This document shows positions 10,277 to 39,400 of a stretch of DNA of 64,000 nucleotides, one piece after another. Each line of letters opens with the position of its first letter. The stretch's first letter is position 1. The stretch is from Tubulanus polymorphus. Its lineage: Eukaryota > Animalia > Nemertea. Both the position numbers and the translations under genes were made by a program. The notes beneath the pieces were generated by a model. The model was not told the DNA's origin, ran no database searches, and saw only the letters and a list, made by a program, of their open reading frames with translations. The DNA is taken from contig NC_134027.1 in the NCBI RefSeq assembly GCF_964204645.1, positions 23,770,560 to 23,834,559 on the forward strand. Reading direction: 5' to 3'.

Positions 10277-10405
10277 ATGTCGGAAACTCACGCGGATACG
10301 ACTGGACATCACGGTCGTGGCCGACACGCTACTCCTTCTGAAAATAAACCGGCCAAGTCGAGATTAGCCGGCGTGGGACCTTTAGAAAATATCAAGGAAA
10401 AGCAG
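10277..10405 (+). CDS. Candidate alternative first exon A of the dynein heavy chain (MSETHADTTG...LENIKEKQ, 43 aa)
   Basis: AAGATG start with an in-frame stop upstream, CAG|gtaagc donor in phase 0, and a CpG-rich region at 9945-10080 upstream. Linkage to the dynein is inferred. Confidence 0.6.
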
Positions 10406-11017
10406 GTAAGCCTAATAATGAATTCGAATATAATTGGTTAACTTAATTAAGAAAATTTGATTTATTATGACGAATGTAATTATGACAATTTTTTTAACAA
10501 AAAAAACTTTGCTAATGAGATGAGGTTGATTTGATTTGTGAACCAGTTAAGACGATTAGTGTAGTCTAGTCTGGCACTGGTTAATAGTTGCCTAATTGTT
10601 GGTGGTAAGCTTTTTATGATCGGATGGGCTTATACCAATGTGGTTTTGTGAAAAATATCCGATTGTGAAACTAAACCAGACAGGTTACTGACTAGTCTGG
10701 CACAGGGCGGATCCAGAAATTTGAGAACTTTTCCCAGATATGATATAACGAATTTGTGCATTACCTACACTATACAGTAATTTCTGGCAGCTGCCGAAAC
10801 AGATTTTAGTTTCTTCATAATTGATTCTAACAGAACATTTTCGCACATGTAGTAGGGTAGGGGGTAGAGACCGCCCATTAGATCGCCCCTGCCACACAAT
10901 ATTCGTATTCAATTTTCGGAAAATATGTCTAAGTTCATAGTTTGTCAAATTCACCTCGCGTTCGATTCACCTTTTGTCGGACCTAAACAAATTCTTCTAG
11001 AAAAAGACTCGAGATAA

Positions 11018-11182
11018 CAGTGTTTTCAATAAGAAATTAACAAGCCAGGTCCCTTTGAAAAACAGGAGGGTGACATAATATGTCACAGTCCCGGAAATGA
11101 AAGCTGCTTTGAAAAAAACAGGCGGGTCCTTTACAAGCGACAGACGGGTCTGGGACCTTGGACCTGGCTCTTATTGAAAACC
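11018..11182. mobile_element. hAT-like MITE copy, right end damaged
   Basis: Near-identical to 33726-33887; begins with CAGTGTTTTCAATAAGA. Confidence 0.75.
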
Positions 11183-12027
11183 AATTTCTAAAATTTCTAA
11201 TTCTTGTTCCAATATCAAACTCAAATTCATTGAAATCATAGAGTACCTACAATTTTTTTATGGCATGTGTTTCATTCAGTGCCAATTTTCACCGAACTCT
11301 TCAAAATCTTCCCGACGACAATCTAACTGAATTCTTGGATGAAAATATAATTTTCTCTGGTCTAAATGGTAGCGTTATTGGCGTCAGGGGCTCAGAGTTA
11401 TTGAAAGAACCTGAAATTTATTAGTGCCCACTCCTTTTAAAGACACTTTTTTTAGAATTTGCACCGCAAAAAAAATCGCAAAAGGGCAATCAATTTCTAT
11501 GAAACAAGTTTACCTGTTACCCAGGTAATATGCAATGGAGTTGAGGTAAAAAAAAACCCTGGTGAAAATCCCCCCCCCCCCGTATCCAATTTTCTATTGA
11601 ACTAGAGTAGAAAAAACTAGATAAAGCTTTTACAACAAGATTTAGGAATACATAAGTACATGGACATTTTATTATCACTTTTTTAAAACTCGATTTCTTT
11701 AAAGAAAGTGAGCGCTAGCAGTGGTAACTTTCTATAAAGACCAGGGTATTTTCACCGGGGGGGAGGGGGGGTTAGTTGGGTGGATTTTTACCAACATTCA
11801 TACGCAATATTCTGTACACTGGATACATACAGCCACACGGATATTATGCGAGCTTTGTATCATTCTACTAGTACCGGCCGCGTTAACAATAGAAACATTT
11901 TAATTAATTTACAATTCGTCAATGTTGCGATGTTTACATTCACCGTGCAATAGCCGTGCGCCGCGTATCGATCGATGAAATCAACCTTTCTCCGTGGATT
12001 ATGTGTTAATTAGCGTTCTTCTGTCGA

Positions 12028-12281
12028 CAGGGGAGTTCCGAGGGTTCTGGAAAACCGTCGAGTTTTGTCTCTGTCACTTGGAGGTGCCCCTAAATTCATG
12101 GATTTGACGTAAAATTGCCCTCGTTTGGCATGATTCGGCGTAGTAAGTGCCCCTGAAAACCACAAGTTTGAGTGCCCTTTTTTTCCGTGATTTGACATAG
12201 AAAGTGCCCTCGCCCATAATATAGTCGGTGCCCTTATACAATTTGGAACCCCCTCGAGATAGGGCCCTGGCTCTGCCCCTG
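12028..12281. mobile_element. Dispersed non-autonomous element (CAGGGG...GCCCCTG ends)
   Basis: Clearly homologous to 52291-52560 (GAGGGTTCTGGAA...AAGTGCCCCTGAAAACCACAAGTTTGA...GGGCCCTGGC). Confidence 0.7.
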
Positions 12282-12790
12282 GTTGAGTACCGGACTACCA
12301 TTACTATTTGAGAGTAGTTTTTTTTTAGAGCTCAATTGTACTACCAAAATTATCAAAATATTCTCGAAATCCGAATGATTTTTAGTTTGTTTTCAATCGA
12401 ACTGCTATTTTCTATGTCAATTTGTGGTGAAACCTACTACACTAGGAGACACTAATGAATTTTGGTCTTTTATTAGCTCTTCCGGCCTATAGAAGCTTCA
12501 GGATTTGAGGAAGTTAACATATTAACATATAAATTAGTAATTGACATACAATTAGGTTTTACCAGTACTGCAGCCTCAGGATATGGGAATAATGGGGACG
12601 TTGACATACAATCAGTACCAGGTGATGGGAATTTCCACGTCAAAAGGGAAAACTGCCCCTTTTTATTAATGTGCCCTTACACCTTCGCTGAGATCCTTTA
12701 ATCTTGCCCAAGGCTCTGCCCTTGCATAAATTCCACGCTAACCTATGGCAAGGGTCGGCCTAAACTTGTTTTTTCTTGAACTTTTCTTAA

Positions 12791-13078
12791 CCCTTTCAGT
12801 GCGTCTACACCGCAGTGCGGTGTACAAATCAGTGATGGATTTTGCTAGTACACCGCACTGTGGTGTATTGATTTAATTAGTAATTTCTAATTATCTCTAT
12901 TGAAAAATGGCAGCACCTGTCAAACATAGTGAGATATTAGTAACTAACGATACACCGCGCCGCGGTGTAGACGCACTAAAGCGGTCAGCCCGTTATTCAA
13001 CACACTAGGGTGGAATTTTTCAGAATTTTCAAATTATCTTCAGCACTATAGGGTATTAATTAGCCAGCACTGAAAGGG
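12791..13078. mobile_element. piggyBac-type MITE
   Basis: TTAA|CCCTTTCAGTGC ... GCACTGAAAGGG|TTAA: TIRs plus TTAA target duplication; second copy at 42408-42686. Confidence 0.9.
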
Positions 13079-14807
13079 TTAAACCGGAGTTTGGTTTCGT
13101 ATAAAGTTTTCAATTTCGAATGTTCGGTTCGTTCAAGAGTTTGTCGGGTTCGTTGGGTTCTTCATGCGAATTAGCTGACGGGACTATTGTGCGTACGCGC
13201 CAAAAATGCATGATAGGCCTATATTGTCATTGATTTTTCCATTGGGCAGATCCCGGGGCCTGATCTGCTGGTCGTCAAGAATCCATTGATCGCTAAGGGA
13301 ATTCTGGCAGCAGTGCCCTTTTACATGTTATAGGAAAAAAATACACGTGTTTCTAGAACTTACAAAATCATGCCTTTTACGGAAAGTGCTTTTTTTATTC
13401 AGGATTTTGAAGCGCCGTTTATGAATCTAAATGGGGCACTCGATATTTTGAGGGTTTATGAAAACCTCGTAAGACCCCACAGGCGGGGGGGGGGGGGGTC
13501 TTACTCGATGAACAGAAAGTAATAATCTTAAAAGCGAGAAACTTTCAGACGGAAAGCTTTTTAAATTTCCATACGAACGCTTATTGAATGTAAACCTTTT
13601 TAAATACTTTCCACCGCCGATTTTCTTCTACGATATGCGCGCATTCAAAACCCGACCGAAACCAACTTTCGATACAATATATAATTAAACCGTCCCGTGG
13701 AGCCTTACAATTCGCTTTACAAGACGTTCGCAGCGTCGTACTTAAGTCATCGAAGCAGTCGATTTCTTTGATAATCGGCGAGAAAGTGTTTTATTCGCCG
13801 CGCGCACATAACGAGTCGACTTCAATGAGGTTTTGAATGAGAGTGAGTCGCGAGTATTCAAGATTTCGATATATACTAATACAGCGTCTATAATTGAAGT
13901 GAGGGGCGTGCGTAGAATTTTAAACAGCGATATACATACGCGTTGTTATATTGTTCCTATCGGACTGATTTCGGAAGTCTTGGCAACGGCGTTTCGAATT
14001 ATAGCTGGAAAATATACGAACAGTTATCGTTGTTCCGGCCGAGGTTTTATTTTCGTTTTTTTCTTTTACGAATGGGGAATATCGCACTTATGGGTTTATA
14101 AGTTTTAAAGCCCCCCCCCCATCTCTTGTTCCACTCCCCGCTTATGGATTTATGACTGGAGACTGTGTAGAAGATTTTGCCAGTGTCAACACCGAGCCGG
14201 AGTCAAATTGGGCGCGTGCTGCTAAATCCGAAATTGCATTCATGCGTAAATCACTAATTCGGCCACGCATTCATGCCAGATTAGGCCCGGGCCAACTGCC
14301 CTATCTATAAAAAGCCACGGGCGTATTTTGATTCTGGTCTAGCCCGGACCATTTTGCCCTGGTGTAATCGCGGCTTATGTCTTGACAGGGTTGCTCCGAC
14401 GGCCAATATACATCAATTTCGTTTGGAATTCTCTTGCTGTCAAATATTTAGGGGCCTATGTAGCGGCGGTCTAACTGGGTGCTAAAGACCGAATTGAAAA
14501 CGACTATTCGTAGCGTTTCATATCGCGATGTCATAAAGCAGAAAAAAAACATTTGATGATCCGAAACTTTAAGTGAATTTGTCCTCGTATTCGTTGAGCG
14601 GTACGAGTACTGCACCGTCGTACCCGCAACACCAGCTATCCCACCAGATGGCGTGACGAGCAGTAGGTTCATTTTCGATGAACTTTGAACTGAAAATTTA
14701 CATTCCTGAATCCATAAATTCATTATGAAATGAATTCACTTTTCTACTGGGATATCGGTATAGTTTTCATCGATGATTGATTACGCTCTACGTATTCAGG
14801 AATAGCG

Positions 14808-15220
14808 TAATCTGTTGACCTGACAGAAGCGGTCGGTAGAAAGTTTGTAATCTGTCGACCTGATAGAAGTGGTCGGTAGAAAGTTTGTAATCTGTCGACC
14901 TGATAGAAGTGGTCGCTAGAGAGTTTGTTATCTGTCGACCTGATAGAAGGGGCCGGTAGAGAGTTTGTAATCTGTAAACCTGATAGAAGCGGTCGGTAGA
15001 AAGTTTGTAATCTGTCGACCTGATAGAAGGGGCCGGTAGAGAGTTTGTAATCTGTAAACCTGATAGAAGCGGCTGGTAGAGAGTTTGTTATCTGTAAACC
15101 TGATAGAAGCGGCCGGTATAAGAGTTTGTAATCTGTAAACCTGATAGAAGAGGCCGGTAGAGAGTTTGTAATCTGTAAATCTGATAGAAACGGCCCCGGT
15201 AGAGTAGAGAGTTTGTAATC
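14808..15220. repeat. 40-bp minisatellite, about 10 copies
   Basis: Unit TGTAATCTGTCGACCTGATAGAAGCGGTCGGTAGAAAGTT. Confidence 0.95.
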
Positions 15221-15579
15221 CTATACGAAACTGGAATACATTCAATGGAAACTGGGCTTCAGGTCAAGGTCGTTAATCGTGCGAGCGTTACGAGCAGACG
15301 GCCTTTTTTCGAATGTGGATAGTCGATGAAATTTCGATCAATTTTCTCATCATCCGATGGCAATAAAACTCGAGTAGTTCGACGGATGAATTGGATGCCA
15401 GGGTTGAACGGATGTTTCAATTATCAGTCGGCTGTGTGTGAATTGCTAGGTTACGCTGAACACATCATAGTTTTATGAATGAATGAATGGATGATTAATC
15501 ATGTTCTGATGTTCGTTCGTGTCGCGGTGAGGTCGTGTTTTCCATAATTCTTCTTCATAATCAGAGAGATTAATCACAG

Positions 15580-16305
15580 AACCAAAATTGGCTTAAGTTT
15601 GTTTTAGATTGGTTATGGAACCAAACAAGGCTTAGACTGGTCTTAAGTAGTTAGATCAACTATGAACCAAAATGAGCTGAGTTTAGACTGGTCTTGTATT
15701 GTTAGAATGGCTATAGAATCAAAATGAGCTTGGACAGGCTTTAAGTTGTTAGATTCGTTATAGAACCAAAATGAGCTGAGTTCAGACTGGTCTTTAGTTG
15801 ATAGATTGGCTATAGAACCAAAATGAGCTTGGACTGGTCTTAACTTGCTTGATTGGCTATAGAACCAAAATGAGCTTAGACTGGACCTAAATTGCTAGAT
15901 TGGCTATAGAACCAAAATGAGCTTGGACAGGCTTTAAATTGTTAGATTTGTTACAGAACCAAAATGAGCTGAGTTCAGACTGGTCTTTAGTTGATAGATT
16001 GGCTATAGAACCAAAATGAGCTTGGACTGGTCTTAACTTGCTGGATTGGCTATAGAACCAAAATGAGCTTAGACTGGTCTTAAATTGCTAGATTGGCTAT
16101 AGAACCAAAATGAGCTTGGACAGGTCTTAAATTGCTAGATTCGTTACAGAACCAAAATGAGCTGAGTTCAGACTGGTCTTTAGTCGATAGATTGGCTATA
16201 GAACCAAAATGAGCTTGGACTGGTCTTAAGTTGTTAGATTCGTCATAGTACCAAAATGAGCTGAGTTTAGACTGGTCTTAAGTTGTTCGATTGGTTATAG
16301 AAAAC
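15580..16305. repeat. 43/48-bp satellite array (family S1)
   Basis: Unit TTAGACTGGTCTTAAGTTGTTAGATTGGCTATAGAACCAAAATGAGC; other arrays at 22885-23300, 28985-29950 and 31535-31815. Confidence 0.95.
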
Positions 16306-18651
16306 TCGTAACCAATCAGGGGCTGTTGAAATGAAATTCCGCGTCGATATTTTCCACTACCATGGGAATCGTACTTATAGCTACGAATCTATACGAATCT
16401 ATTTCGTCATTTTGTCGAGACAAGAAAATTATTTTATTGCTGCGACCGCGACTGGCACCCGTCCCTTGTATGTTCACACGGTTTAGACGGCTACATTGTG
16501 TTCATTCACTCACGCGAACAAAAAACCCATAAAAATCGTCCTGTTAACTGTTGTATACACGTACAATGGTGTTGAAGTAATTTTTGGGAAAAAATTCCGG
16601 CCGCACACAGGGAGATATATCGAACCCGATTTGTTGACAAAGAAATGTTTTTCCAGCTGGTTTCGTAACTTAGTGCGTCGCTCGCGGAAACGCGCTTTAT
16701 ACCGAAGACGATGTTTCTTGTTTCGAAGCGACGTGTACACACACAGTCGCGAAATGTATCTTCGGGTTCGTATGTCCTGCTGTGAGTACAGAAAAGAATC
16801 CCGCTTTAAGAAAAAAACTTTATGTAAATATTTTTTAGCTGTATACTTAAAAAGCCGGCTAATGTCATACTGAAAGAAGCCCCTGATCATACGGGCGGTT
16901 TTTGCCCACGCCAAACCGTTCACACAGGTGCCGAATGGGCCCAAATTTGGCCCGACCAAAAATCAGGCCTGAGCCAAATTTTAGCACGGGGCAAATGATT
17001 GTATATATGAAAAAATGTCTCCCTTCGCTTTGTTTAAGCGTTGTTTAGTATGGAGTGAGTGGTAAACGCGATTTCTCTAATTAGGCGCGGGCCAAATTTG
17101 GCGGTTTAGCCCAAAAGTTGGTTATACTTGTGGATAGTCGACATAGTGACGATTAAAAGTTCATCTTTACTGTGATGTTTTAACCAACTTTTTAGTAACT
17201 GTTCCCAGGTAATATATTCAAGTCTAAACGTTGGAGATATATCTCGTCACGTCGTGTTCATACGTTATTAACTGCTTTATTCGTTGATAGATGTCGCTAG
17301 CGTTACTACCGTGTTAGTCTACTATACACGCTGAAGATGGCAGCACCGAGCTGAGATCCGGAGACTCTAGTTACTCCCTGCTCAAGCTACTCCGCATCTG
17401 TTGCTTTGCGCGATGAAATATATTCAATGTTTGCCGAACGTTTTTCATCAATCACTTGTTGTGAATGTCGCGATGCAAGCAACATCGATATGATTAAGAT
17501 CGATGTGTCTGGTTCGGCTCGTGTCTTATAGAAACGAATTGGACTATCGTCATAGATAACGAGGCCTAACGTTAATTAATGCCTCGATCAAATAACATGT
17601 ATATATCGCTTAAAATTATTGAGAACGAATAATATTATACAAATCATTAGGATCAATAAAGTTATTTTGGAGAAAATCAATTGATTCAATCGAATTGACC
17701 GGCAACTAGCCCTGATATATCTCAAAATTATCAAAATTTATCGAAAATGAAAAAAAAGAGTTACGAAATATATTTAACTATGAAATAAATGCCAAAATAA
17801 TGCACAATTGCACAATTGACAATTGTAATTGTTTTATTGAAATTCCAACATTGATGATGTAGCACACAGTCATGGACTCATACAGAACAACCCCCTTGTA
17901 ACGCTTTTTACAGCATCAATATATGTATATGTATATGCATATGCATATGCATATGCATATGCTTTGCGCGAATTAAACCCGCTTTATGATCGCTATCGAA
18001 AGCAATGATGGATGCTATCGCGTGCGCGGTCGCTGCGCTGCTCCGCGTTTATTAATGTTTCGTGAAATTGGCCGATTTGTATACACATACGGCCTGATAA
18101 AGCCTTTTAATCAGGCGATGTCATAAATAATATACGCGTTCTATAGAGAATGAGAGAAAGAGAGAGTGAGGGCAGGTGAGAGCAGGTGAGAGACGAGAGG
18201 GAAAGTAACCACGTTAAGCCGTATACGGAATTATACATCACGAAAACTGAAAGCTAGTTCGTAGTACGGACCGACGAAAACTGAAAGCTAGTTCGGCGTA
18301 CGGACTGACAGACGGACGGACGAACGGAGTCTTCATTCTGACGGAATAATGATTTTGTTTTCCTTGACGACTATATTGGACGAGCAGAAACCTCGATTGT
18401 GAAGAGCTGACGAGAGGTGCTGTTATTTCGAGAGAAAAAAAAGGCTCGCGAAATTCAGTCGAAATATCGCGACTTTCTTAGTTTTTTCGTCAGCGTTGAT
18501 TACCCGTCATGGTCGGTTTAGAAACTGTCTTTTAAGCGTCTGAACTTTAAAACGGCGCCTCTCCTCTCGTGTTACGCGATTATAGACTCTTAACTGAGTT
18601 GTGTTCGGATAGATAGCGTCCAGGTTTGGATTTGTATTAGGGGGAGATATA

Positions 18652-18738
18652 ATGTTGGCCGCCTCGGGATTGGCGAAATGGAAAAGTCTGATGAAAGTAA
18701 AACGGAAACCGAAAAGCAAATTGATCGTATTCAATCCG
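18652..18738 (+). CDS. Candidate alternative first exon B (MLAASGLAKWKSLMKVKRKPKSKLIVFNP, 29 aa)
   Basis: ATAATG start and CCG|gtgagt donor in phase 0. A GA-repeat/CpG-rich region lies upstream (18000-18580). Confidence 0.65.
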
Positions 18739-19435
18739 GTGAGTAGTGGACCGTGGTTTTTTTTGGGGGGGGAAATATCTTTGTCGTGCTGCCCCCTCCC
18801 CATCAAACTTTCAGTGCGCGGTCGACTTGACGGATTATTTCATAAAATTTCATTTCGTCATAAAAATTTCAAATAGCAGTTTTATTTTTGCTTTTTCATA
18901 TAGAAATGAGGAGAAAAACCCGGCGCTAGATGGCTTGTTTAAATGGCAGCGCCCGTTAGTTTGTTTTATGCTGCGTTTTTTTTCGGTGTTGCATTTCAGA
19001 ATATTTGAGTTTTCTGCATGCGTTTGAAAGTTGTGGGCACCTTTCCGGAAATGGCAGCATTTACTAAACAGAGGTCATGTGATCTAATTGTAAGCTCATT
19101 TTCTAATCATGATTAGCCCTACCCATTTATGATTTATATTTCTCACAGTAGGCAAAATATTCCATTGTCAGCTGTTAGCTGATGCTAAATACCCTATTTG
19201 TTATTTGTAATTAGCTCATTTGCATAAGATATAGGTCACTTTCAGTAAGAAAAATGATTGCCAAGATTTTCTAATGGAACCTGGTACCCTACAAACTTTT
19301 CAATTACCATAACGCTCTATCTCTTACAGTTTCCACTCGATGGAGCTCCCAAGTCACTACTGATTTTCCTTCTTTTTAGTAAAAAATGATGGGCGCTCAT
19401 TGGGGATTTTCCCAAATCACACATATTTTGGGCTC

Positions 19436-19695
19436 CTGGGGCCAGTTGCGCAGTCGTGACTTCGGTCCAAAAGCGGTTTTAAATCTAAAGATTTGTTGTT
19501 AGATCGGCTATAGAACTAAGTTGAATCCATTTAAATTAAAGCCATCTTAATTAAATCCATTTAAAACTTTGATACTCTGGATAATGTTTGAAATCTGAAA
19601 TATTTAAAACCTGGATAGATGAATCTACGTATCAATGGTTAAGTCGGTCTAAGACTGGTCTTAAGTCCAAGCCATGACTATGCAACCGGCCCCTG
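19436..19695. mobile_element. MITE (GGGGCCAGTTG...CAACCGGCCCC TIRs) with internal insertion
   Basis: Same family as 50866-51009 and 63821-63964. Confidence 0.75.
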
Positions 19696-19779
19696 GCTCC
19701 ATGGTCATTTTTGAGAAACCGAATCAAGCACCCATGTAAGGCGCTACAGGTTTGGACTTCAACCGTATTTGGTTCAGAT

Positions 19780-20826: not shown

Positions 20827-21135
20827 CCCCCGTAAGCCGTAAAGCCGCAAAATCTCTAGAAAACTGTTCGATTATTCTATTACCATACTCCGAGAACTAT
20901 GTTCGTCGATCAAATTTTCTGAGTTAATTCAATTTATCGTCAATTTGTCTTGTTCATTCTTCACCATTGTGCTTACGGTTCTGGCTGAAGTCATCAATTT
21001 CACAAACATTATTGCTTCATGTCTACATAGGTGAATAACGTTTTTCTGAAAGTTAGCCTAGGGTATGGCATTAGGTTATGTGTTCTTCAGAAAAATTGAT
21101 AATATCACGAGAATATTCTCATATGGAATGAGAAA

Positions 21136-22274: not shown

Positions 22275-22322
22275 ATGGTAGGAAATATGATCAAAAACGT
22301 TGTTAAAAAACAACAGCAATTG
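22275..22322 (+). CDS. Candidate alternative first exon C (MVGNMIKNVVKKQQQL; may start at ATG 22287)
   Basis: TTG|gtaagt consensus donor in phase 0, in-frame stop at 22227 and a CpG-rich leader upstream. Confidence 0.55.
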
Positions 22323-22884: not shown

Positions 22885-23300
22885 TTTCTATAGCCAATAT
22901 AGCAACTCAAGACCAGTCCCAGCTAATTTTGATTTTATAGCCAATCTAGCAACTTATGACCAGTCTAAGCTCAATTTGGTTCGAAAGCCAATCTAGCAAA
23001 TTAAGACCAGTCTAAGCTCATTTTGGTTCTATAACCGGTCTAGCAAATTAAGACCAGTCTAAGCTCATTTTGGTTCTAAAGCCAATCTAGCAATTTAAGA
23101 CCAGTCTAAGCTCATTTTGGTTCTATAACCGGTCTAGCAACTTAAGACCAGTCTAAGCTCATTTTGGTTCTATAGTAGATCTAAGTATTTAAGACCATTC
23201 TAAGCTCATTTTGGTTCTAAAGCCAATCTAGCAACTTAAGACCAGTCTAAACTCATTTTGGATCTAAAACTAATCTTACAAACGAAGACCAGTTTCATCA
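22885..23300. repeat. Satellite family S1 array, reverse orientation
   Basis: TTAAGACCAGTCTAAGCTCATTTTGGTTCTATAGCCAATCTAGCAA, about 43-bp period. Confidence 0.9.
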
Positions 23301-23874: not shown

Positions 23875-24054
23875 ATGGCTGACGGAGGCAGTAATGTCGG
23901 CGGCGGCAGTGGAGGCACCGAGAGGTCGGGCGCGAATTCGAGTTCGGGTTCGTTGAAGGCGTACGTGACGATCAAGCCGGCGACGAAGCCGAAAAAAGCC
24001 CTGTGGAGGGTCACGCGGCATAAGTGGAAACATCAAGGAGTTCTGAAGTCACTC
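23875..24054 (+). CDS. Candidate alternative first exon D (MADGGSNVGG...ALWRVTRHKWKHQGVLKSL, 60 aa)
   Basis: GTAATGG start and CTC|gtaagt donor in phase 0. The KWKHQGVLKSL end resembles the end of vertebrate DNAH5 exon 1 as recalled (LWKHSVTRVLT, followed by QRLK). Confidence 0.8.
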
Positions 24055-26243: not shown

Positions 26244-26414
<171 letters not shown>

Positions 26415-28517: not shown

Positions 28518-28580
28518 ATGTCGTCGAATAAAAAGTGGCGCGGCGCCGTCGCCAAGCCCGTTACATCGACCAGTTTAGTG
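28518..28580 (+). CDS. Candidate alternative first exon E (MSSNKKWRGAVAKPVTSTSLV, 21 aa)
   Basis: GCGATG start, GTG|gtaagt donor in phase 0, CpG-rich leader. Confidence 0.7.
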
Positions 28581-28984: not shown

Positions 28985-29950
28985 GTTGACTGGTCTTAAG
29001 TTGTTAGATTGGTTATAGAATCAGAATGAGTTTAGTCTAGTCTTAAGTTGGTAGATTGGTATAGAACCAGAATGAGTTTAGTCTGGTCTTAAGTTGGTAG
29101 ATTGGTTTAGAACCAGAATGAGTTTAGTCTGGTCTTAAGTTGGTAGATTGGTTTAGAACCAGAATGAGTTTAGTCTAGTCTTAAGTTGGTAGATTGGTTT
29201 AGAACCAGAATGAGCTTAGACTGGTCTTAAGTTGTTGGATTTGTTATAGAACCAAAATGAGTTTAGACTGGTCTTAAGTTGGTAGATTGGTTTAGAACCA
29301 GAATGAGTTTAGTCTGGTCTTAAGTTGGTAGATTGGTTATAGAACCAGAATGAGTTTAGTCTGGTCTTAAGTTGTTGGATTGGTTATAGAACCAGAATGA
29401 GCTTAGACTGGTCTTAAGTTGTTGGATTGGTTATAGAACCAAAATACACTCAGACTGGTCTTAAGGTCTTAATTTGTTGAATTTGTTTAATTGTCAATAT
29501 CAGTTTATACTTCTCTAAGTTGTTAGATTGGTTTAGAACCAGAATGAGTTTAGTCTGGTCTTAAGTTGTTGGATTGGTTATAGAACCAGAATGAGCTTAG
29601 ACTGGTCTTAAGTTGTTGGATTGGTTATAGAACCAAAATGCACTCAGACTGGTCTTAAGGTCTTAATTTGTTGAATTTGTTTAATTGTCAATATCAGTTT
29701 ATACTTCTCTAAGTTGTTAGATTGGTTTAGAACCAGAATGAGTTTAGTCTGGTCTTAAGTTGTTAGATTGGTTATAGAACCAGAATGAGCTTAGACTGGT
29801 CTTAAGTTGTTGGATTGGTTATAGAACCAAAATGCGCTCAGACTGGTCTTAAGGTCTTAATTTGTTGAATTTGTTAAATTGTCAATATCAGTTTATACTT
29901 CTCTAAGTTGTTAGATTGGTTAAAGAACCAGAATGAGTTTTAGACTGGAC
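28985..29950. repeat. Satellite family S1 array with about 195-bp higher-order unit in its 3' half
   Basis: 42/43-bp units; the block GGTCTTAATTTGTTGAATTTGTT...CAGTTTATACTTCTCTAAG recurs three times. Confidence 0.95.
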
Positions 29951-31125
29951 AGGATCGGGGTAAATTCCCTTTCCGCTTATTAATACGCCACCCTTGAATT
30001 CGAACGATGTAAATGAAATGATTTGTAGATTCGAAAAGTAATTTTTCATAGATTTAGGAATTTTCACTTGTCTCAGGCTGAAAGAAAGTAAAAGTCGCAA
30101 TCGCGAGAGCTTTTTCGACGCATGCATAAGTTTGGCCTGTGCCACATAAGGCCTCGGCCAATTGTTCCTACTTTTGCCAAATGGGTCCGTGCCTGTTCGA
30201 CACAGGCCACATTTGGATCAGCAACAGTACAACAGTATTGGATCAGGCCCACGCCATATCTTAGCATGGGTCAAATTATTCCATTTCGTTACTCTCCTCG
30301 CTTGCCGTAGCATAATTTTGATAGCATTCTAGCGAGCGAGTAATTGCGAATGTCTCTTAATTAGGCACAGGCTCTTTTTCTAGGGACTGATTAGGCACGG
30401 GCTAAGTATAGCCGCGTTCAGCGCTTTTGGCCCACGCCGAATTGACCGGGCCCCATCCGGGTCAATTCGGCCCTTGATAAATCATCTCCGCGCGATCATG
30501 GTTTACGATCCCCGGGGTCCGTTCTGGATTGACACGATCGCCTATATATCGAGCTGACGCGCTTGTTATCTTAACCTTCCAAATTCTCGAGAACTCTTCA
30601 AATTTACTATTCGTAACTGTACGGAGAATCCGTCGGCCTCGGTGGTCGTCACTTGTCATCGAAGTTCAAACAAAAATCCGCGATAAGATAAACTTTGCGC
30701 GCCGCGGCCGGCCGGTGATCATCGTGACCCATCGTCGAGTCGTTACAGTTCAAATACGTAAGATTATATATCAGCGAATAACTCGCGGTCTTGTGGACGT
30801 GTCTTGCGGTCGCTTCGCGAGGATTAATTAAATCCGCACGAACGATAATATTATTGCGAGAAACTCGTGAATTTCACGCTCGACGATTTCTTTTAATTGT
30901 TAAAAGCTTTGTGAACGTCGAGAAACGTTTGTACGTTGCGTACGAGTTGTTTTTGCATTAAACGGCGTATTTAGTTACTGGGCGTACGTCGATTCCGATG
31001 CACTTTTAAGAAGCGTCGCGAGTTCGGAATCTATTTCCGATTCGATGTGAATCTTATTTCGCGATCCAATCTACTTGATTTCGGATTTCGATTTAAACGA
31101 TTTGTGGTGAAAGATCTTCGATAAA

Positions 31126-31407
31126 ATGGCGTCAAACGAGAATACTACGGATACGACTGCGAAGAGGCCGTCCGTCGGAGGTCAGAGGCCATCCGTCGGA
31201 GGTCAGAGGCCATCTGTCGGAGGTCAGAGGCCATCCATCGGAGGTCAGAGGCCGTCCATAGGAGGTCAGAGGCCATCCGTAGTAGAAGGGCCGCCGAGGC
31301 GAGTTTCTACGATGAGTAACGGCGGGCGTAAGATTTCGAACATCAGTCTCGGCGGGCGTCGGATATCTGTCGCGATGGGACGGACGATTCTGCCAGAATT
31401 CAGTAAG
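31126..31407 (+). CDS. Candidate alternative first exon F (94 aa) with RPS(V/I)GGQ heptad repeats and RRxS motifs
   Basis: AAAATGG start, AAG|gtaaaa donor in phase 0, and an in-frame 21-nt tandem repeat at about 31163-31281. Confidence 0.8.
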
Positions 31408-31534
31408 GTAAAAAAGATTTTCTAAAAATGACGACGATTTACGAGGAGAAAAGTTTTACTCAAACTTTTGGTTTTTCGGTTTACGAACTTAAAAGGTCAA
31501 TATTGGGTCCCCGTTGCAGGGTGAGGTTAAAGTC

Positions 31535-31815
31535 TTTTGGTTCTATAGACAAACTAACGACTTAAGACTAGTCTAAGCCAATTTTGGTTCAATAAATAAT
31601 CTAACAACTTAAGACTAGTGTAAGTTAATTTTGATTCTAGAACTAATCTAACAACTTAAGACCAGTCTAAGCTCGTTTGATTCTATGGCTAATCTAACAA
31701 CTTAAGACTAGTCTAAGCTCATTTTGGTTCAATAACTAATCTCACTACTTAAGACTAGTTAGTCTAAGCTCATTTTGGTTCCATAACTAATCCAGCAACT
31801 TAAGTCCAGTCTTAA
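31535..31815. repeat. Satellite family S1 array, reverse orientation
   Basis: CTAACAACTTAAGAC(C/T)AGTCTAAGCTCATTTTGGTTC repeats. Confidence 0.85.
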
Positions 31816-33668
31816 GACCGCAGTTACTAGTGTTCTGTGTTAATTCCCTCATTTAAACACTGACTGCACGATACAAGTAGAATATTTGGAGATTCTTTAT
31901 CTTTAGGGTATCTTTGAAATTGTCAATCCTAATCATTGCATAAATACTTGTAAAAACCAGTCTTTATTAGTCGGCTACTATCGTTAATGGAGCTACATTC
32001 AGAAACGAAGAGCGTAAAAAATGTAGTGTTTGCCAAACAGAAAAAACAACTTCCCGCTTGGAAAACGCTTTATGCCTAAGAATTACGGAAACCTAGCAAC
32101 TAATGGCGCGACGACGACAGCAGCAGACGGATTTATCTGACGGCGGTTTTTTTACGTCTGTCGTTGTGACACAGTTGATTAATTCGCCGTGAAACTGTCA
32201 ACAAAACACGAACCTCCTCGACGACGACGGACGACAGACGAGGACTGAGGATTATCGAGGAAATCCAGGCACGTTCGTTTCCGAATCGGAATTCTTTGCG
32301 CATATACGCAGCGAGTACAGAACGAGGGTTTCCGCGAAACGTTCCGGTTCCTAGTCGAAATTCAAAATTCAAACCGAGCTCATCTACGTAAGAGTTAATG
32401 AAAATGCTAGTTAACTGGGTGAAGGTTTTGGATACGTGGACTTAGTTGGCGTCTGCGAACTTGTCACAGTTTTGTACATCGATTCTTGATTTTCTTGTAT
32501 CGGATATACCTGCGACTATTGCATAACCATCATGGATATCATCATGATAATAATCTACTTGGACCGCTCGATTTTGTGATGGTTTTGTGCATTGATCTGA
32601 CATGCTAATCTGCAAATCGTGGATACATCTTATCGTAATTTAGATGCTGTTTTTATTAGGACTAAAATTCTGGCTGCTGGTGTAGGTAGATAGCGCGCTG
32701 GTTTTATACGCAGGTTCTTGCTTTTTTCGGTTGCTAGTTCTAAGAAAAAGCCAATCCTGTTGTTCATCTTTGAACCAGTTCTACAATTGTTGCAGCTTGC
32801 GTCCACGACGTAGACCCTGTTCTGTAGTTGCTGCGATTCATAGATTAAGTATCGAAATGCGGAGTTGAAAATCGGTTCTTTTCGAATGATTTCAATTCTA
32901 AATTCATTGGCTCGAGATCAAATCATAACGGGACTCGTAAAACTGAAGCATAAAACCGACGAAGAAGATACACATTTCGATTGTTTTCTAGATACCAGCG
33001 ATATTCATATACAGATCGTATGTTCACGATAGGATTCGCATTGTCTTGGACTGAAGAAGCTGAGCCGTCGCGCATTGTCAATCAATCAATTAACTCTATT
33101 GATTTACTTAATGAAGTATGGATTGTAATTTGAGATACTTATGTATACACGCATAATACAATATATAGACGTAGCACAGGTGGAAGTTATCAAGCCCGGC
33201 CATTCCGTTGTTCACACCTCTGTACAGAACCTTCTGAGGTCCCCGCTCCTTGCTTTTTCGATGCGCACTTGCTGGTAAACTGTCGGGATTATCTCTCTTG
33301 GCAACTTGGAAGGATTAGCTCATAATCCCTTACAGGAAGGATTACCTAATCATAATATCTTAAGGAATATTTCACGGATTTGTGTACAACTTGAATTATA
33401 TCATTATTGAAATATTTAGAATCAAGTAAAGTGGACTTTTTGAACATTTTTATAACTTAAATCATTTCAATTTCGTAGTGAAAACTAACGCGCGAACGAT
33501 GTAGATCATTTTTCCTTGTTCTGAACTAGTCGAGTGGTAGAATTGAACGGACGTTCGTCGAAGTTGAACATTAGTTTATAGACGATCAATTGAAACGTTC
33601 ATTTTCGTTGAACGCTACTGCGGGATATTATAGCGCGATCGGTCGTTAATTCGACGATCCGCAAAAAA

Positions 33669-33716
33669 ATGACGAGTCAAAGAAGAGGATCTTTACTAAT
33701 CAACCCGAAAATAACC
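33669..33716 (+). CDS. Candidate alternative first exon G (MTSQRRGSLLINPKIT, 16 aa)
   Basis: AAAATG start and ACC|gtacgt donor in phase 0 (the same donor hexamer is used at 48357 and 53870). Confidence 0.55.
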
Positions 33717-33725
33717 GTACGTATT

Positions 33726-33887
33726 CAGTGTTTTCAATAAGAAATTAACAGCCAGGTCCCTTTGAAAAACCAGAGGGTCCCATAATATGTCAGTCCTAGA
33801 AATGAAAGCTGTTTTAAAAAACAGGCGGGTCCTTTACAACGACAGACGGGTCTGGGACCTGGGACCTGGCTCTTATTGAAAACACTG
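33726..33887. mobile_element. hAT-like MITE, 162 bp
   Basis: 17-bp TIR CAGTGTTTTCAATAAGA / TCTTATTGAAAACACTG, flanked by a CGTATT duplication. Confidence 0.85.
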
Positions 33888-34092
33888 CGTATTTTGAGGA
33901 AGATATCGACGAGCATTTCGGAAATTCTTTCCGGGTCAACGCGGAACCATTTGTCATTTCGTTGAAGTATGGGGGCGACTTGAAAAACACATTCATTTCA
34001 CGTCAATTTTTCCGAATGACATTTTATTTACGGGTAGGTTATTTATAGGTAGGCAACGTAGCGCGCTTACAGTGCGGTATGACGCTATCGGA

Positions 34093-34116
34093 GTTGCCAT
34101 GGCGATGCGTAAACAA
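34093..34116 (+). promoter_or_regulatory. RFX X-box next to a forkhead (FoxJ1-type) site
   Basis: GTTGCCATGGCGAT (34093-34106) then GTAAACAA (34109-34116), upstream of a motile-cilia gene body. Confidence 0.65.
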
Positions 34117-34455
34117 TGTTCGACGCCGCGGGACCGCAATCTAAATACGTCCTGTTTTGCGCTATTCACAATCTCGAGTGGAGATCTCGTGTCCCCATAG
34201 TAAAATCATAACATAGTTTTATTCGAGTATGAAATGAGTTAATGATTGTAATGAATAAATAATCTGAAGCCACTTGGAAATAAATCTAGATATGATTTAA
34301 GAATCGATAATAATAATAATAATTTATTGAGCCTACAATATTATATACATTCAGTATGAAATGAGTTACCTAATTCTAGGAATGATAGAAATACCCTGGC
34401 CTCTCTTTTAAGCAGGGAGGGAGTGAGGGTTTCGTGGGAATATAGATTAGGTGGA

Positions 34456-34677
34456 GAGGAGAGAATCCCACAATGATAATAAAAAGTCCGAAAATGAAAC
34501 TTCGAGATAGTAGTTTATTTCAACGTTTCGACTATATCCTAATAGTCATCTTCGAATGTTATAGTCGAAACGTTGAAATGAACTACTATCTCGAAGTTTC
34601 ATTTTCGGACTTTTTATTATCATTGTGGGAGTCTCTCCTCATCGCGTCAACACGGATATAGTGTTCTACCAATCGTG
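34456..34677. mobile_element. Penelope-like palindromic insertion with 14-bp target-site duplication
   Basis: Inverted repeat 34456-34640 with about 80-bp arms; direct repeat ATAGATTAGGTGGA at 34442-34455 and 34678-34691. The minus strand reads GAAGATGACTATTAGGATATAGTCGAAACGTTG. Confidence 0.7.
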
Positions 34678-34864
34678 ATAGATTAGGTGGAACTTATTTA
34701 TGGGCGGGAACCAATTTGGGAAGTTCGGGATCCTACCGATAGAAAACTTTTGAAGATTTTTAGGAAGTGTTTTAGGTTTAATTTGGCAGTGATTTTAAGA
34801 GGTACTCAATGAAGGAACAAACAAATGCTGGACTGTGCGGGACAATCAGTGATGATAAGATGTA

Positions 34865-35037
34865 CAATAGAATCCGCTTAAATCGGATCATCCCGGGGCC
34901 AACAAGTTTCATCCGGTTTACAGGAAATCCGGATTAAAATTCATTTCTTGTATAGTAATGAACAAATGTACTGAAAATAATGCCCGGATTAGATCATAAT
35001 CCGGATTAAGCCGATCGGGATTAAGCAGGTTTGACTG
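34865..35037. mobile_element. Tc1/mariner-type MITE, degenerate
   Basis: TA|CAATAGAATCCGCTTAA ... TTAAGCAGGTTTGACTG|TA. Confidence 0.6.
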
Positions 35038-35883
35038 TACTCTAAAAATCTTCTTTGATTAAAGATATTGGATCTCAGGATTTTTTTTTTGGGGGGGGGG
35101 GAGGCGCTTTTATAGCCAACGTGTACCTTAGAGAAAATACTTGACCCCACGGGATCCGAGGTAAACCAAGTCTACTGACGTTACTAATGACCACCTGATA
35201 ATTCAATCGATTCAGTATAATCAAAATTTGCGTATTCGAATATTTGATCGGCGCGCATTCACGGCAAACGTACGTGTACCTTATCCGGCAAATATTGCTT
35301 AAATACAGTTGAAATAAGCCTAAAATTCAATACCGACCATAGAATGAGAACTGTCGACGAATACCAACAAAATAAGGAGGGAACGTGTTATATTTACTTA
35401 GAAATCTAAGATTTTAGTAAATTTTATGTATTTACACGCGTATAGTGTTTGCCATTCGACCTCTTGCAGTAAATTTCCTATATTTATACGCGTATGCTGT
35501 TTGCTTATCGAAGTACTCGAATAAAGCGCCGACTCGAAGGGGAGCGCGTTGTCGTCGGTAAGCGCAATCGAGTCTAATACGAAACTATTAACGCGACTGT
35601 CGGATCTGTCGCTAATCGATTCCGATTGCCGGAGCCCGACGAGAGAGAGAGAGTCGTATTCATTATTCTCACTTCGCCTGGTTGTTAAGTGACGACTGCT
35701 GCTACGATTTAGGAGATTTATACGCGTATTCGTTAGCGCTGGATAGCGAAAAAAGCTTATTCGATATTTCTGCTTTCTCGATTACGCGGAATGTGTTGTT
35801 GAATTGTTTCTTTTTTTTCGTTCGGGGATTCGGTGATATTTTTTGTGATTTCTTTGACCGAATAAGCGATAGAATCGGCGAAT

Positions 35884-35922
35884 ATGTCTTTGATTACTAA
35901 AAAGGATATCAACGAATATAAA
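35884..35922 (+). CDS. Candidate alternative first exon H, most proximal (MSLITKKDINEYK, 13 aa)
   Basis: AATATG start with an in-frame TAA at 35863, AAA|gtaagt donor in phase 0, and a (GA)n/CpG-rich leader at 35520-35750. Confidence 0.75.
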
Positions 35923-36477
35923 GTAAGTGCTCGGTTGGAGAAAATGTCGAGATTGGTTTTCGTGGATGTTAAGTTCGTTCAGGTATATGATCAGATCGTC
36001 AGAGGCGTCTGTTATGCTTCTGTTAGTGAAACTAAGATCGTTTGAAAGTCATTTACAGTTTGCATCGATGATATTTTACACGACGAAGTAACATCAGTTC
36101 ATTCTTCTAAATGAATCATACCATGTTATGAGGGAAACTAAGTGTGTTTGAAAGTAGTCACTCGGTCAGTTTTTTTTTTTTAACACCCTCATTCTGCTAA
36201 GCGCCATATCAAATCCGTCTTATTTCAACCAGAAAATTACGCAGTATCATCGTGTGGATTGTCGGTTCAAAATGAATCATTGCATGAAGCCATGCATCCG
36301 TTATCCGATAAGGGGACCTGAAAATATCAGCAAATGACAGCACTTGGCACTGCGGACTCAGTTTTGGTATCCGCAAAGATGAAGCCAGCTTCGTGATTGT
36401 CGCAGGCATCTGTAGCGCTATGTTTTCAAATTTGTCTCTATATAGCGTAATTTGTGCGAATTCGAATGTATTTTCAG

Positions 36478-39400
36478 CAAAAACTGAAAGAGGAAAGAGA
36501 AGCCAAAAGAGCTCAGTTGGAACACACGCATAACTATGTATTGCAAACGGTTGCGGATAGTCTGGGCATCGAAAGGTCTGAAGTGGAGGATGCTATACTC
36601 GAAGGAACTCAGGTAAGGGATGATTACTGAAGTTTGTCGGTGCAGGTATCAATCTCAGACATTTGATACTTTTCATCACGGTTCTTCCAATTTTTGATTG
36701 CCCACACTTCACATGCTTTCAGCGACTTAACCTAAGACATTTAGATTGAAAGTGAACTACAAACACCAGACATAAGACATTTTACCTGCACACTTTCAAA
36801 AACTAATCGGCCACACTTCACATGTGTTCAGAACTTCACCTGAGACATTTTTAAATGAAAATGAACTACAAACACCAGACATAAGACATTTTATCGGCAC
36901 ACTTTCAAAAACTGATCGCCCACGTCATTTCACATGTGTTCCGAACTTCACCTGAGAGATTTTTAATTGAAAATGAACTACAAGTACCTGACAGATATTT
37001 TATCAGCACACTTTCAAAAACTAATTGTCCAGACTTCACCTGAGACATTTTCATTGAAAATGAACTAAAAACATTCGAAATTTGATCAGCACACTTTCAA
37101 AAACAGATCGTCCACACTTCACATCTATTCAGGCCTTCACCTGAAACATGATTTAGTTGAAAATGGACAACGAACTCCGCATATTTGACATTTTATCGAC
37201 GAACACTCACTTTCAAAAAATGATTTCTCATCCTTCGCACTACAACGGTGAATGTCTTTAAGCTGTGGATTCATACACCTGAATATTGATGTTTGATATG
37301 AGACATTGTCTTCTGTCATACTTCTGTACTATTTATTTTAATTCATTTTATTTATTATAGTGACATGCACATTGTCTATGAAAATAAACAGAATATAAAG
37401 GTTTGGTGCCCAGCCCTAATTTAGACTTATAAGTCACTTTATACTAACGCATGACATAATATTACGAATATTCATAAATCTGCACATGTGTATACATATA
37501 AACATACATACATACTTACATACACACGCACACATACGCATACACATGTATAAAGATATTTCTACAAAAAAAATAAATGGTTACAAAATTGGGTTCAAAA
37601 GTAAATTTCTTTTTGACCACGCAGCAAGGAGAAAGTTGGAGAGTAAAATTTGATGACTAGACATAATTTGTATTAATTTAAAATGTTATAATCTGGGCAT
37701 ATCTCGGTTTTTTTTTTCAGATCGAGACGATGAACAATTTTTTCAAGGCAGACGGAGATCGTCAATTACTGTTTTATTACCAGGAACCGGAGCCAGAACG
37801 AGAAGCCGGTAAATAGATTCCACCGACTCGGAAGCTAACGCTGTTTTACTCATTTTATAATATATGAAACGTTACTAAAAGATCTATTCAAGTAAGAAGC
37901 TTCCAAAAATAATGATTGGATCTATGATTTGAGGTTTTAGGCAAAACTCACAAGTCGTAATCAGTTCGTTTTTGTTTAGCTCAGTCAAGCGTGAACCATG
38001 AACTCAAGATTGTTGTTGAACTGAGTCCTGGATCAGACCTGACTGTAGGTCAGCTCTGAATTCACAATTCGTTCATTTCCAATCGCTTTAACTCTTTAGG
38101 ATCAAAATGAACTCACACCTGCATCCTGTTCCATAGTCGGGAGTTGGATTTAATTTTGTAGATTGAAATCAGTTCATTTCTAGTGGCTTAAACTCGTTAG
38201 AATTCAATTCAAATCATGACAATGGAATTGGGTGCAAGTGCGAGTTCAATAATATGAATATCAATTTTTCTTCGTTTTGAATGATCTTTGATTGGTACAA
38301 TTTAACGATAACAAATATATTATACATATATATAGGTTTTGATAGAATTTTTTACTTAAACATCAATTTTATACTTAATTTTTCGTCACTTTTTTGCATG
38401 TTTTTTCTGATGTTAACTTTTAAAACGGTGTTTTTGCTTTTTAATCTAATGCTACATTCTCAAGAACTGCTCATCAACACAATTCTGTGAATGTTACGAT
38501 ATATCGGAAATTTGGTGATATGAAATTTTCAATCAAGTTTTCGGAATACATACATGTCAGCTCCTCCCAGTGACTAAAACAGACACTTGATTTTTATGCC
38601 TAGTGCGCAAAGCAAGAAATTAACATGAAACGTGTTTATTGGTTTGTTCCGTGGCTGTTTGCATCGCTCCGATACAAGACACAATGTTTATTGAAACATC
38701 CAATTGCTATATGCGACATCAGAGCAGCTGAAATAGAAACACCAACTCAAAAGCCAATCAGCGATAAGGAATGGATCACATGACTGATAGAAATAAGCGC
38801 CATTTAGAAATCATGTGAAATTATTACTTCTCATTAATAGGTAGTGCTGTAGGTTTGTTTTGGTGTTTCTTGTTTCCATGCATGCGATAGTGGGTGAACT
38901 AAACACAATATCTGTTTCTCATTTCGAGGTTAGGCTCTAACGAATTCGACGAGCAGTTCTTGAGATCGGTTAATTCGTAATCGTTTGTTTTTTTAACCCG
39001 TGATTTGGCTTAACGTTTCAGCGGTAGAGTTCCGAATTACTCAAGCTGAATCTTACACTAGACGCAAATCCCAAAGTAGGAACTCACTGGAATTTTATAT
39101 ATATATATACTTGATATTATGTACATCATTACATATCGCATAGTCAAATATACATATCTCTATCACCAAAAATGAATCTGACGATTTCTCCTGCTGTCAC
39201 TTAAGGATTCGCTTCTCTTTCTTGCACCCTTTCGTATTATCCCCTTACTCTGTTGTGGGCGTGGTTTAATTCGAGGCATAACGAATAAAGGTTTTTTGCC
39301 TCGTCATTCGTGCCCTGATTGTCACCTCGATTGCGAAATGCTATCCTACTCGGTACAGTTTTAAATCGCTTTAGATAAGCCGTAGTGTTCATGGATTTTG

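Follow-up and report, generated by a model that had tools for sequence, protein, structure and literature searches.

How can one conserved axoneme serve ciliated cells that differ in their beat and in their sensitivity to cAMP? The question is raised by a locus in a 64,000-nucleotide stretch (the window) of contig NC_134027.1 of the nemertean Tubulanus polymorphus, in which the original prediction had placed an array of alternative first exons upstream of an outer-arm dynein heavy chain. We regard it as likely that the 5' end of this DNAH5 gene holds at least five, and probably seven, alternative first exons that splice to a common exon at 36478, giving one heavy chain with several unrelated N-termini of 13-94 residues. 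A set of interchangeable, conserved N-termini where the main outer-arm motor docks would be a direct, testable handle on differences in beat and in cAMP sensitivity.

Gene identity and the common exons

The DNAH5-like protein of Tubulanus polymorphus at NCBI (P0054) is encoded in the window and maps exactly, with 0 mismatches over 2,565 residues. It is the single NCBI model for the species, and its N-terminus is the segment 7 peptide (see below) joined to exon 36478. DHC_N1, DHC_N2 and AAA_6 are found in the constant body by Pfam. The named homologs among those listed are DNAH5 or DNAH5-like, and the constant region matches human DNAH5 in PDB 8j07. These domains, homolog names and structural match identify the predicted product as DNAH5, the outer-arm gamma-type heavy chain. 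The common exons are as follows.

36478..36612, + strand: first common exon, 45 aa; phase-0 acceptor predicted to be common to all isoforms; start of the dimerization domain.
37721..63676, + strand: later common exons for the DNAH5-like heavy chain, of which 34 were mapped via P0054; the end of the last exon is uncertain and the gene continues past the window.

A sequence check confirmed that the first common exon opens in phase 0 without an ATG, and its acceptor is normal. It aligns to human DNAH5 residues 20-64 (PDB 8j07), and the position of its acceptor is identical in five of the six loci fetched. Among the further exons, one of 54 nt at 39022-39075 had been overlooked in the first inspection of the DNA.

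Eight candidate first exons

All eight ATG-to-donor segments of the original prediction lie at the coordinates claimed for them; each begins with ATG and runs without a stop, over a multiple of 3 nucleotides, to the donor described. A purine occupies position -3 in seven of them; segment 3 has one at its second ATG, 22287. All eight lie outside repeats.

10277..10405, + strand: segment 1, 43 aa, distal first coding exon; its class is conserved most widely and ends in ...SRLAGVGPLENIKEKQ.
18652..18738, + strand: segment 2, probable first exon with a basic 29-aa peptide; strong donor, weak homology.
22275..22322, + strand: segment 3, doubtful first exon, 16 aa; good donor, ordinary CpG leader, no significant homology.
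23875..24054, + strand: segment 4, first exon of 60 aa, rich in G/S at first and basic thereafter; matches Lineus X1/X2.
28518..28580, + strand: segment 5, probable first exon, 21 aa; donor, CpG-rich leader, rank 3 for Lineus X8.
31126..31407, + strand: segment 6, long first exon, 94 aa; 7-codon repeat, four [RK][RK]xS motifs, clam matches.
33669..33716, + strand: segment 7, first exon, 16 aa, one RRGS motif; start of the NCBI model.
35884..35922, + strand: segment 8, proximal first exon, 13 aa; amphioxus and fish matches; a longer form may extend to another phase-0 donor, 35982.
13403..13468, + strand: 66 nt following segment 1, in frame; by its open frame and acceptor strength a possible cassette exon, or else a pseudo-exon.

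The last of these features runs against the claim that no other + strand coding exon could receive the segments, being an open stretch between AG and GT that is in phase 0 at both ends. Its acceptor is the strongest of 1,596 in the region and its donor is fair; it has no repeat copy within the window, and no homolog support was seen. Also overlooked was an intronless, 7TM receptor-like open reading frame, which lies between segments 2 and 3 on the minus strand.

Donor strength and reading phase

Chance was assessed over 8001-36477, with block shuffles, the other phases and the minus strand as controls. A simple donor pattern gave 10 phase-0 segments on the + strand, against 3.65 +/- 1.93 in 200 block shuffles, none of which reached 10. 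The same pattern gave 5 segments in phase 1 and 3 in phase 2 on the + strand, and none in phase 0 on the minus strand. Trained on the 34 internal donors of the DNAH5 gene itself, a donor matrix placed seven of the eight segments in the top 18 of 1,781 GT sites (segment 1, rank 3; segment 2, rank 4; segment 5, rank 9; segment 3, rank 14), and segment 7 at rank 56.

The segments might nevertheless be chance products of a search for phase 0, with only segments 1 and 7, or fewer, being exons and the rest accidental ATG-donor pairs. Such pairs do arise, at 1-4 per phase on the minus strand and at 3, 1 and 3 in 18.7 kb of internal introns. However, at a donor score of at least 7, phases 0/1/2 hold 10/2/0 segments on the + strand and 1/3/0 on the minus strand, so that phase 0 has 10 hits against 0-3 in the five control classes. 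Ten of 12 + strand hits in phase 0 correspond to a binomial p of 5e-4, the hits not being fully independent. The ten comprise seven of the predicted segments and three extras (12583-12621, 31428-31520 and 35884-35982, the last being the longer segment 8). These extras count on the side of chance, as does segment 3. Shuffle tests against foreign N-termini found no significant homology for the additional phase-0 segments 13370-13468, 19051-19089 and 31428-31520. Chance is also opposed by matches described below, those of segments 4 and 8 anchored at the junction and that of segment 6 to clam N-termini, and we consider chance as the general explanation highly improbable. The original caution that weak members may be accidental may hold for segment 3, which lacks homology support, whereas the phase-0 excess on the + strand only speaks against it for the set.

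Homology of the segments

We compared 484 ATG-GT segments with 221 foreign N-termini under two scorings, local and junction-anchored, with 200 shuffles each. The foreign isoforms are automated annotation models. Segments 1, 7, 4 and 8 took ranks 1, 4, 5 and 7 of the 484 (hypergeometric 1e-6, or 4e-5 without segment 1, nested segments not being independent). Segments 4, 6 and 8 were significant in one of the two scorings only, and one of seven decoy segments also reached 2/200 in one scoring. Individual rankings used 34 query N-termini chosen by eye after the sequences had been seen, the Lineus set alone being complete. In that complete set, all five distinct kinds placed one of the eight segments in the top 5 of 484. 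Segments 1, 4 and 7 ranked first for X4, X1/X2 and X9 (likewise 16 aa), respectively, segment 5 third for X8 (22 aa) and segment 2 fifth for X5.

Conservation is clear for five of the eight segments (1, 4, 6, 7 and 8), weak for two (2 and 5) and absent for segment 3, and the claim of several alternative first exons on a constant DNAH5 is supported to that extent. Segment 1 (0/200 shuffles) has an ending that recurs in molluscs, amphioxus, sea cucumbers and a hemichordate, and vertebrates have a related one. Segment 7 (0/200 shuffles) ranked 1-5 for four bivalve N-termini and did not match the two gastropod N-termini tested. Segment 4 reached 0/200 shuffles when anchored and 90/200 locally. It also weakly resembles a phase-0 segment upstream of the common exon in metagenome locus L002 (5/2,000 shuffles; not the top among the 484). 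The six metagenome loci with the common exon hold just 0.2-2.4 kb of upstream DNA, too short to reveal an array.

Segment 8 (anchored 2/200, local 72/200) ranked 1, 2, 1 and 2 of 484 for the ...ISN[SE]QITA[FL]K N-termini of amphioxus, eel, cyprinid and bichir. With four mollusc N-termini of segment-7 type as queries, its longer form to 35982 ranked 1-3, a probable chance match, since segment 7 already fills that class. Segment 6 (local 2/200, anchored 158/200) ranked first of 484 for all three long clam N-termini (Potamilus, Dreissena and Mercenaria), which carry 5, 5 and 7 [RK][RK]xS motifs against 4 in segment 6. Its 21-nt repeat is in frame, and its variant codons number 3 synonymous and 2 non-synonymous, against 1 and 3 in the other frames, one of which contains a stop.

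Support for segment 2 comes from 4/200 local and 21/200 anchored shuffles and rank 3 for two oyster N-termini. Shuffle tests were not significant for segment 5 (12/200 and 97/200) or for segment 3 (34/200 and 104/200). Segment 3 ranked 5, 6, 32, 37 and 51 for five mollusc N-termini of the ...NRELQM type, a common mollusc class with no clear counterpart among the Tubulanus polymorphus segments. Pfam found no domain in the five segments scanned (1, 2, 4, 5 and 6) or in the first common exon.

Exchange of N-termini at the same junction

In other animals, the annotated DNAH5 isoforms swap their N-termini precisely where the common exon is joined. Within a species the exon-2 peptide is constant while the N-termini vary, with 5 kinds in 9 records in Lineus, 5 in 10 in Mya and 5 in 8 in Mercenaria. 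In a hybrid amphioxus, six records hold six N-terminal kinds and an identical exon-2 peptide. Non-mammalian vertebrate models have up to three kinds at this junction. Conservation across species supports the array because these foreign isoforms swap related N-termini at the same junction.

The array had been thought unusual for an axonemal dynein. It is less unique than that, since human DNAH5 has one alternative first exon. Automated annotations of molluscs, Lineus and amphioxus already contain up to 5-6 N-termini. A larger conserved array of DNAH5 first exons was not found described in the literature searched, which covered few subscription papers. Alternative first exons are an ordinary mechanism; we found no account of so large an array, nor of several peptide classes being conserved across phyla. 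Single-model annotations, as in Tubulanus polymorphus, are suggested to hide most of the 5' structure of DNAH5.

Promoters, leaders and upstream splice sites

Each of the probable first exons may well have its own promoter, so that promoter choice would pick the first exon, and each would join the common exon by a predicted phase-0 splice. As originally proposed, promoter choice may also give particular ciliated cell types an N-terminus of their own. CpG-rich leaders, claimed for all eight segments, were found for six, all within the top 10% for CpG; segments 3 and 7 have ordinary leaders, matched in richness by 51% and 33% of 400-nt windows. The six are as expected of separate promoters. They argue against an arrangement in which the segments are mutually exclusive internal exons with their own ATGs, fed by one non-coding or trans-spliced leader, so that splicing selects the N-terminus. 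Donor 10059 and acceptor 10165, which delimit a possible 5'-UTR intron (10060-10164), suggest a non-coding exon upstream of segment 1 and would suit such a leader, as would two strong donors, 18175/18185, upstream of segment 2. Yet the best acceptors within 400 nt upstream of the eight segments score 3.3-6.1, which is not above background (136 of 280 random windows hold one of at least 6). We consider the shared leader improbable and prefer separate promoters.

The leaders have no shared motif above the level of random windows (best 7-mer in six of eight, 8-mer in four of eight), although a degenerate one could escape this search. RFX X-box and forkhead-like sites are not enriched near the starts. 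One good X-box adjoins a forkhead site at 34093-34115, between segments 7 and 8. Three sequencing runs over 30000-41600 cover introns and have no exon joints; they are DNA-like and were left out of the splicing evidence.

Possible roles of the N-terminal peptides

P0012, an abalone-like isoform of class 1, was modelled with AlphaFold: residues 1-24 have pLDDT below 50, and a helix at 28-45 spans the exon junction at 34/35. The fold matches outer-arm heavy-chain tails, best of all 8j07. The variable peptides are predicted to be flexible and to lie ahead of the dimerization domain near the docking complex. The chosen peptide would extend that domain's first helix and be flexible for most of its length. 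Two reports place the domain near the docking complex (PMC7817835) and within the tail-to-head interface (PMC8500839), and it would adjoin both the docking complex and the motor of the neighbouring dynein. Basic peptides might then tune docking or arm-to-arm contact.

Conserved RRxS-type motifs, which by their consensus are candidate kinase sites, occur once in segment 7 and as a cluster in segment 6. In cells using such RRxS-rich peptides, cAMP-dependent phosphorylation may act directly on the arm. Judged from sequence, the predicted kinase sites on some first exons could tune ciliary beating by cell type. PKA is tethered in the axonemes of mammals (PMC11779644). Against a direct role of the heavy chain, one paper on cAMP control of an outer arm points to a light chain instead (PMC2120150).

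The exons could also be real and the peptides immaterial, with promoters alone controlling the place and time of DNAH5 production, while a flexible terminus tolerates the peptides as passengers. The predicted disorder of the first 24 residues suits this, as does the lack of relationship among the eight peptides. Several classes are lineage-limited or fast-diverging (segments 2, 3 and 5), and multiple first exons occur in thousands of human genes (PMC1885805). Against it, the class 1 peptide motifs recur in nemertean, sea cucumber and amphioxus, the types of segments 6 and 7 persist in bivalves and that of segment 8 in amphioxus and fish, and the repeat variation in segment 6 is mostly silent. 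We therefore hold this reading to be unlikely and favour peptides with a role of their own.

Comparison with known systems

In plectin, exon 2 can be joined to any of about a dozen alternative first exons (PMC8468861). The DNAH5 locus has the same layout, with several one-phase upstream coding exons ending at donors and one common second exon without a start, and it too encodes a very large cytoskeletal protein with short unrelated N-terminal peptides on a constant body. The two proteins are unrelated, and isoform expression and function are experimental for plectin but inferred for the DNAH5 array. Of the analogies first drawn, plectin fits, whereas the clustered protocadherins and UGT1A do not, their variable exons being mutually similar. 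With GCNT2, these loci also splice tandem one-frame first exons to constant exons (PMC1885805). Their variable exons are large, encode whole domains and share an upstream motif, while the DNAH5 segments are short and unrelated, with no detectable motif. None of the 28 protein pairs of segments fell below 36/1,000 shuffles, and the DNA pairs (segments of 39-282 nt) scored 17-25 against a random 95th percentile of 27.6.

In mammalian sperm, outer arms contain DNAH8/DNAH17 in place of DNAH5/DNAH9 (PMC11779644). There, too, different cilia receive different outer-arm heavy chains, but by whole-gene replacement, whereas the DNAH5 array would place an N-terminal tag on one motor.

Human DNAH5, of the same gene family, is described as having one alternative first exon. 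The point of exchange is at the same intron position, because the common exon aligns to human residues 20-64; there are two alternatives in human against up to eight segments in Tubulanus polymorphus. RRxS-rich classes were not seen in the vertebrate records examined, unlike in the nemertean. It is conceivable, though we would not favour it, that DNAH5 carries an ancient bilaterian set of interchangeable N-terminal control tags (a helix extension in one class, basic patches in others, and kinase sites in the two classes of segments 6 and 7), in which the choice of promoter would decide whether cAMP/PKA directly switches the outer arms and which would survive in smaller form in vertebrates. In this human ciliary-dyskinesia gene, the second first exon may be a remnant of an old regulatory system.

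Probable Alternative First Exons of the Dynein Gene

The DNAH5-like outer-arm dynein heavy chain gene of Tubulanus polymorphus probably has a real array of alternative first exons at its 5' end, with at least five and probably seven members, several of which are, judged by sequence, old. The downstream exons encode the Pfam domains DHC_N1, DHC_N2, and AAA_6, and human DNAH5 residues 20-64 (PDB 8j07) align with the common exon. The NCBI protein P0054 ("dynein axonemal heavy chain 5-like [Tubulanus polymorphus]") maps to 36 exons in the window, 2,565 residues aligning without a mismatch, and starts with segment 7. Its cluster has one member, and the other seven segments are absent from that record. 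Three sequencing runs aligned to the region behave as DNA and show no exon joints, and the support for the array is comparative. The NCBI model also includes a 54-nt common exon (39022-39075). Its omission would leave the frame open, making it a possible cassette exon in the loop of the dimerization domain.

As originally predicted, the eight segments begin with ATG, are stop-free, have lengths divisible by three, and end at the expected donors. A purine occupies position -3 in seven; segment 3 has one at its second ATG. The common exon indeed lacks an ATG and begins in phase 0. CpG-rich leaders, predicted for all, precede six segments but not segments 3 and 7. The statement that no other plus-strand coding exon was seen that could receive the segments needs correcting: the phase 0-0 stretch at 13403-13468 is open, and its acceptor is the strongest in the region. 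No segment overlaps sequence that recurs at another place in the window.

Features of the 5' region (all plus strand), with rank among 484 segments in the forward test and shuffle count out of 200 (local/anchored)
10277-10405, segment 1: rank 1; 0/0
18652-18738, segment 2: rank 17; 4/21
22275-22322, segment 3: rank 109; 34/104
23875-24054, segment 4: rank 5; 90/0
28518-28580, segment 5: rank 148; 12/97
31126-31407, segment 6: rank 236; 2/158
33669-33716, segment 7: rank 4; 0/0
35884-35922, segment 8: rank 7; 72/2
36478-36612, common exon (exon 2)
Three decoys: 35/73, 11/18, 199/135

Since the original search had been for phase 0, all phases on both strands were counted across 8001-36477. With a simple donor pattern, the plus strand yields 10 phase-0, 5 phase-1, and 3 phase-2 segments; no phase-0 segment turns up on the minus strand. 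The phase-0 chance level in 200 block shuffles is 3.65 +/- 1.93, and 10 was never reached. A donor matrix trained on the 34 internal donors of the dynein gene places seven of the eight segments in the top 18 of 1,781 GT sites, with segment 7 at rank 56. At a donor score of at least 7, the counts for phases 0, 1, and 2 are 10, 2, and 0 (plus) and 1, 3, and 0 (minus); at 5.5 or more, they are 13, 6, and 1 (plus) and 4, 4, and 3 (minus). The internal introns, used as a control (18.7 kb), give 3, 1, and 3. The phase-0 excess of about eight matches the predicted number, and does not tell which segments are real.

Conservation of N-Termini

DNAH5 relatives were gathered in three similarity searches, two of which used the best 120 of 180 and the best 120 of 380; members came from 30 clusters, at most 15 each, so counts are lower bounds. 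Many species have isoforms that share one exon-2 peptide and vary only ahead of it. At least five N-terminal kinds occur in the nemertean Lineus longissimus (9 records), Mya (10), and Mercenaria (8), and at least six in an amphioxus hybrid (6 records), one just five residues long. These isoforms are automated models; nonetheless, the same peptide types recur in many species.

In the forward test, 221 distinct foreign N-termini were scored without gaps from the junction against 484 ATG-to-GT segments on both strands. Shuffle counts were taken under local and anchored (from the junction) scoring; in a separate decoy run, one of seven decoys reached 2 of 200 shuffles. In the reverse test, foreign N-termini were compared with the 484 segments with gaps allowed, using 34 queries picked by eye, with the Lineus set complete. 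Among the five Lineus N-termini, segments 1, 4, and 7 each rank first for one, segment 5 ranks third for another, and segment 2 ranks fifth for the last, with segment 4 at 6 there. Segment 6 is the top choice of all three long clam N-termini. Segment 8 ranks 1, 2, 1, and 2 for amphioxus, eel, cyprinid, and bichir N-termini ending in ISN[SE]QITA[FL]K. Segment 7 ranks 2, 3, 5, and 1 for four bivalve RR[GQ]S N-termini and only 138 and 139 of 484 for two gastropod ones. Five queries of the NRELQM type, which is common in molluscs, lack a clear partner, with segment 3 at 32, 5, 6, 51, and 37. Segment 4 ranks third for the vertebrate W-type N-terminus, a likeness that is only suggestive. Segment 6 contains a 21-nt repeat in frame whose variation is mostly silent, which is independent evidence of coding.

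By these comparisons, segments 1, 4, 6, 7, and 8 are well supported as alternative first exons, segments 2 and 5 are probable, and segment 3 is doubtful. The most widely conserved start, segment 1, lies 26 kb upstream; the entire interval is thus intron 1 of the longest form. A metagenome locus (L002, an animal contig) has a phase-0 ATG-to-GTAAGT segment at 647-754 that is weakly like segment 4 and lies 440 nt ahead of that locus's copy of the common exon.

Proposed Promoters and Known Systems

Pairwise comparison shows that the eight segments are not duplicates of one another. No word upstream of them is shared beyond background level, and the 400 nt before each ATG hold no strong acceptor. 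Together with the six CpG-rich leaders, this fits a separate promoter for each segment, with each first donor predicted to splice to the common acceptor; promoter choice would set the tag. In protocadherin and UGT1A clusters, the variable exons are similar and duplicated and share an upstream motif (excerpts of PMC1885805), so the proposed comparison with these clusters fails. The closest working parallel is plectin, with about a dozen first exons that encode short differing N-termini (PMC8468861, in part). In human DNAH5, a single alternative first exon is known. In the literature searched, which held few subscription papers, no account of a multi-exon DNAH5 5' array was found. According to excerpts of PMC10396302, which are silent on the DNAH5 isoforms, effector genes differ among the ciliated cell types of larvae.

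Other elements lie in the first intron:
34093-34115, between segments 7 and 8: near-palindromic X-box-like site with a forkhead-like site directly after, a candidate RFX/FOXJ1 element
33726-33887 and 11018-11181: short inverted-repeat, MITE-like element, copies 91% alike; inserted 9 nt past the segment 7 donor and flanked by a 6-nt direct repeat
15605-16302, 22886-23266, 28988-29948, and 31535-31812: arrays of a 47-bp minisatellite family, with very high depth in DNA runs (one array examined)

Possible Roles of the Tags

In the AlphaFold model of P0012, an abalone-like isoform of the segment-1 type (46-sequence alignment), residues 1-24 have low confidence, and a helix (28-45) spans the exon junction (34/35) into an alpha/beta domain. 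Its fold is like that of outer-arm heavy-chain tails and of the dynein dimerization domain. All eight peptides are basic (net charge +1 to +11). [RK][RK]xS motifs number four in segment 6, one in segment 7, and none in the other six. The three clam N-termini that pair with segment 6 contain 5, 5, and 7 of these motifs, and each bivalve N-terminus that pairs with segment 7 contains one or two. RRxS is a PKA consensus.

In published structures, the dimerization domain lies near the docking complex at the surface of the microtubule (PMC7817835, in part) and in the tail-to-head contact of neighbouring arms (parts of PMC8500839; bioRxiv 10.1101/2020.11.30.404319). In mammalian axonemes, PKA is tethered and linked to beat frequency (PMC11779644, in part), and cAMP control of an outer arm, as described in part of PMC2120150, concerns a light chain. 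A tag would tune docking or add phosphorylation control. That the first exons form an ancient set of regulatory tags, PKA-switchable ones included, is a tentative and rather unlikely extension.

Candidate Neighbouring Genes

Other probable coding stretches in the window:
20826-19783, minus strand: ORF of 348 codons without introns, for a 7TM receptor like those of the rhodopsin family (Pfam 7tm_1 at 30 bits, slightly below the cut-off of 30.5, E 4.5e-7); it lies antisense within the first intron of the dynein gene, between segments 2 and 3
7987-6773, minus strand: ORF without introns, 405 codons or longer, matching ATP-grasp_4 (E 2.9e-6); divergent from segment 1, about 2.3 kb apart
1545-2176, plus strand: three pieces reading as a signal peptide and acidic propeptide with a terminal dibasic site, presumably resembling an astacin-type preprotein
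4812-4408, minus strand: open stretch of 135 codons, protein-like in composition and lacking a Pfam match, probably an exon of another gene
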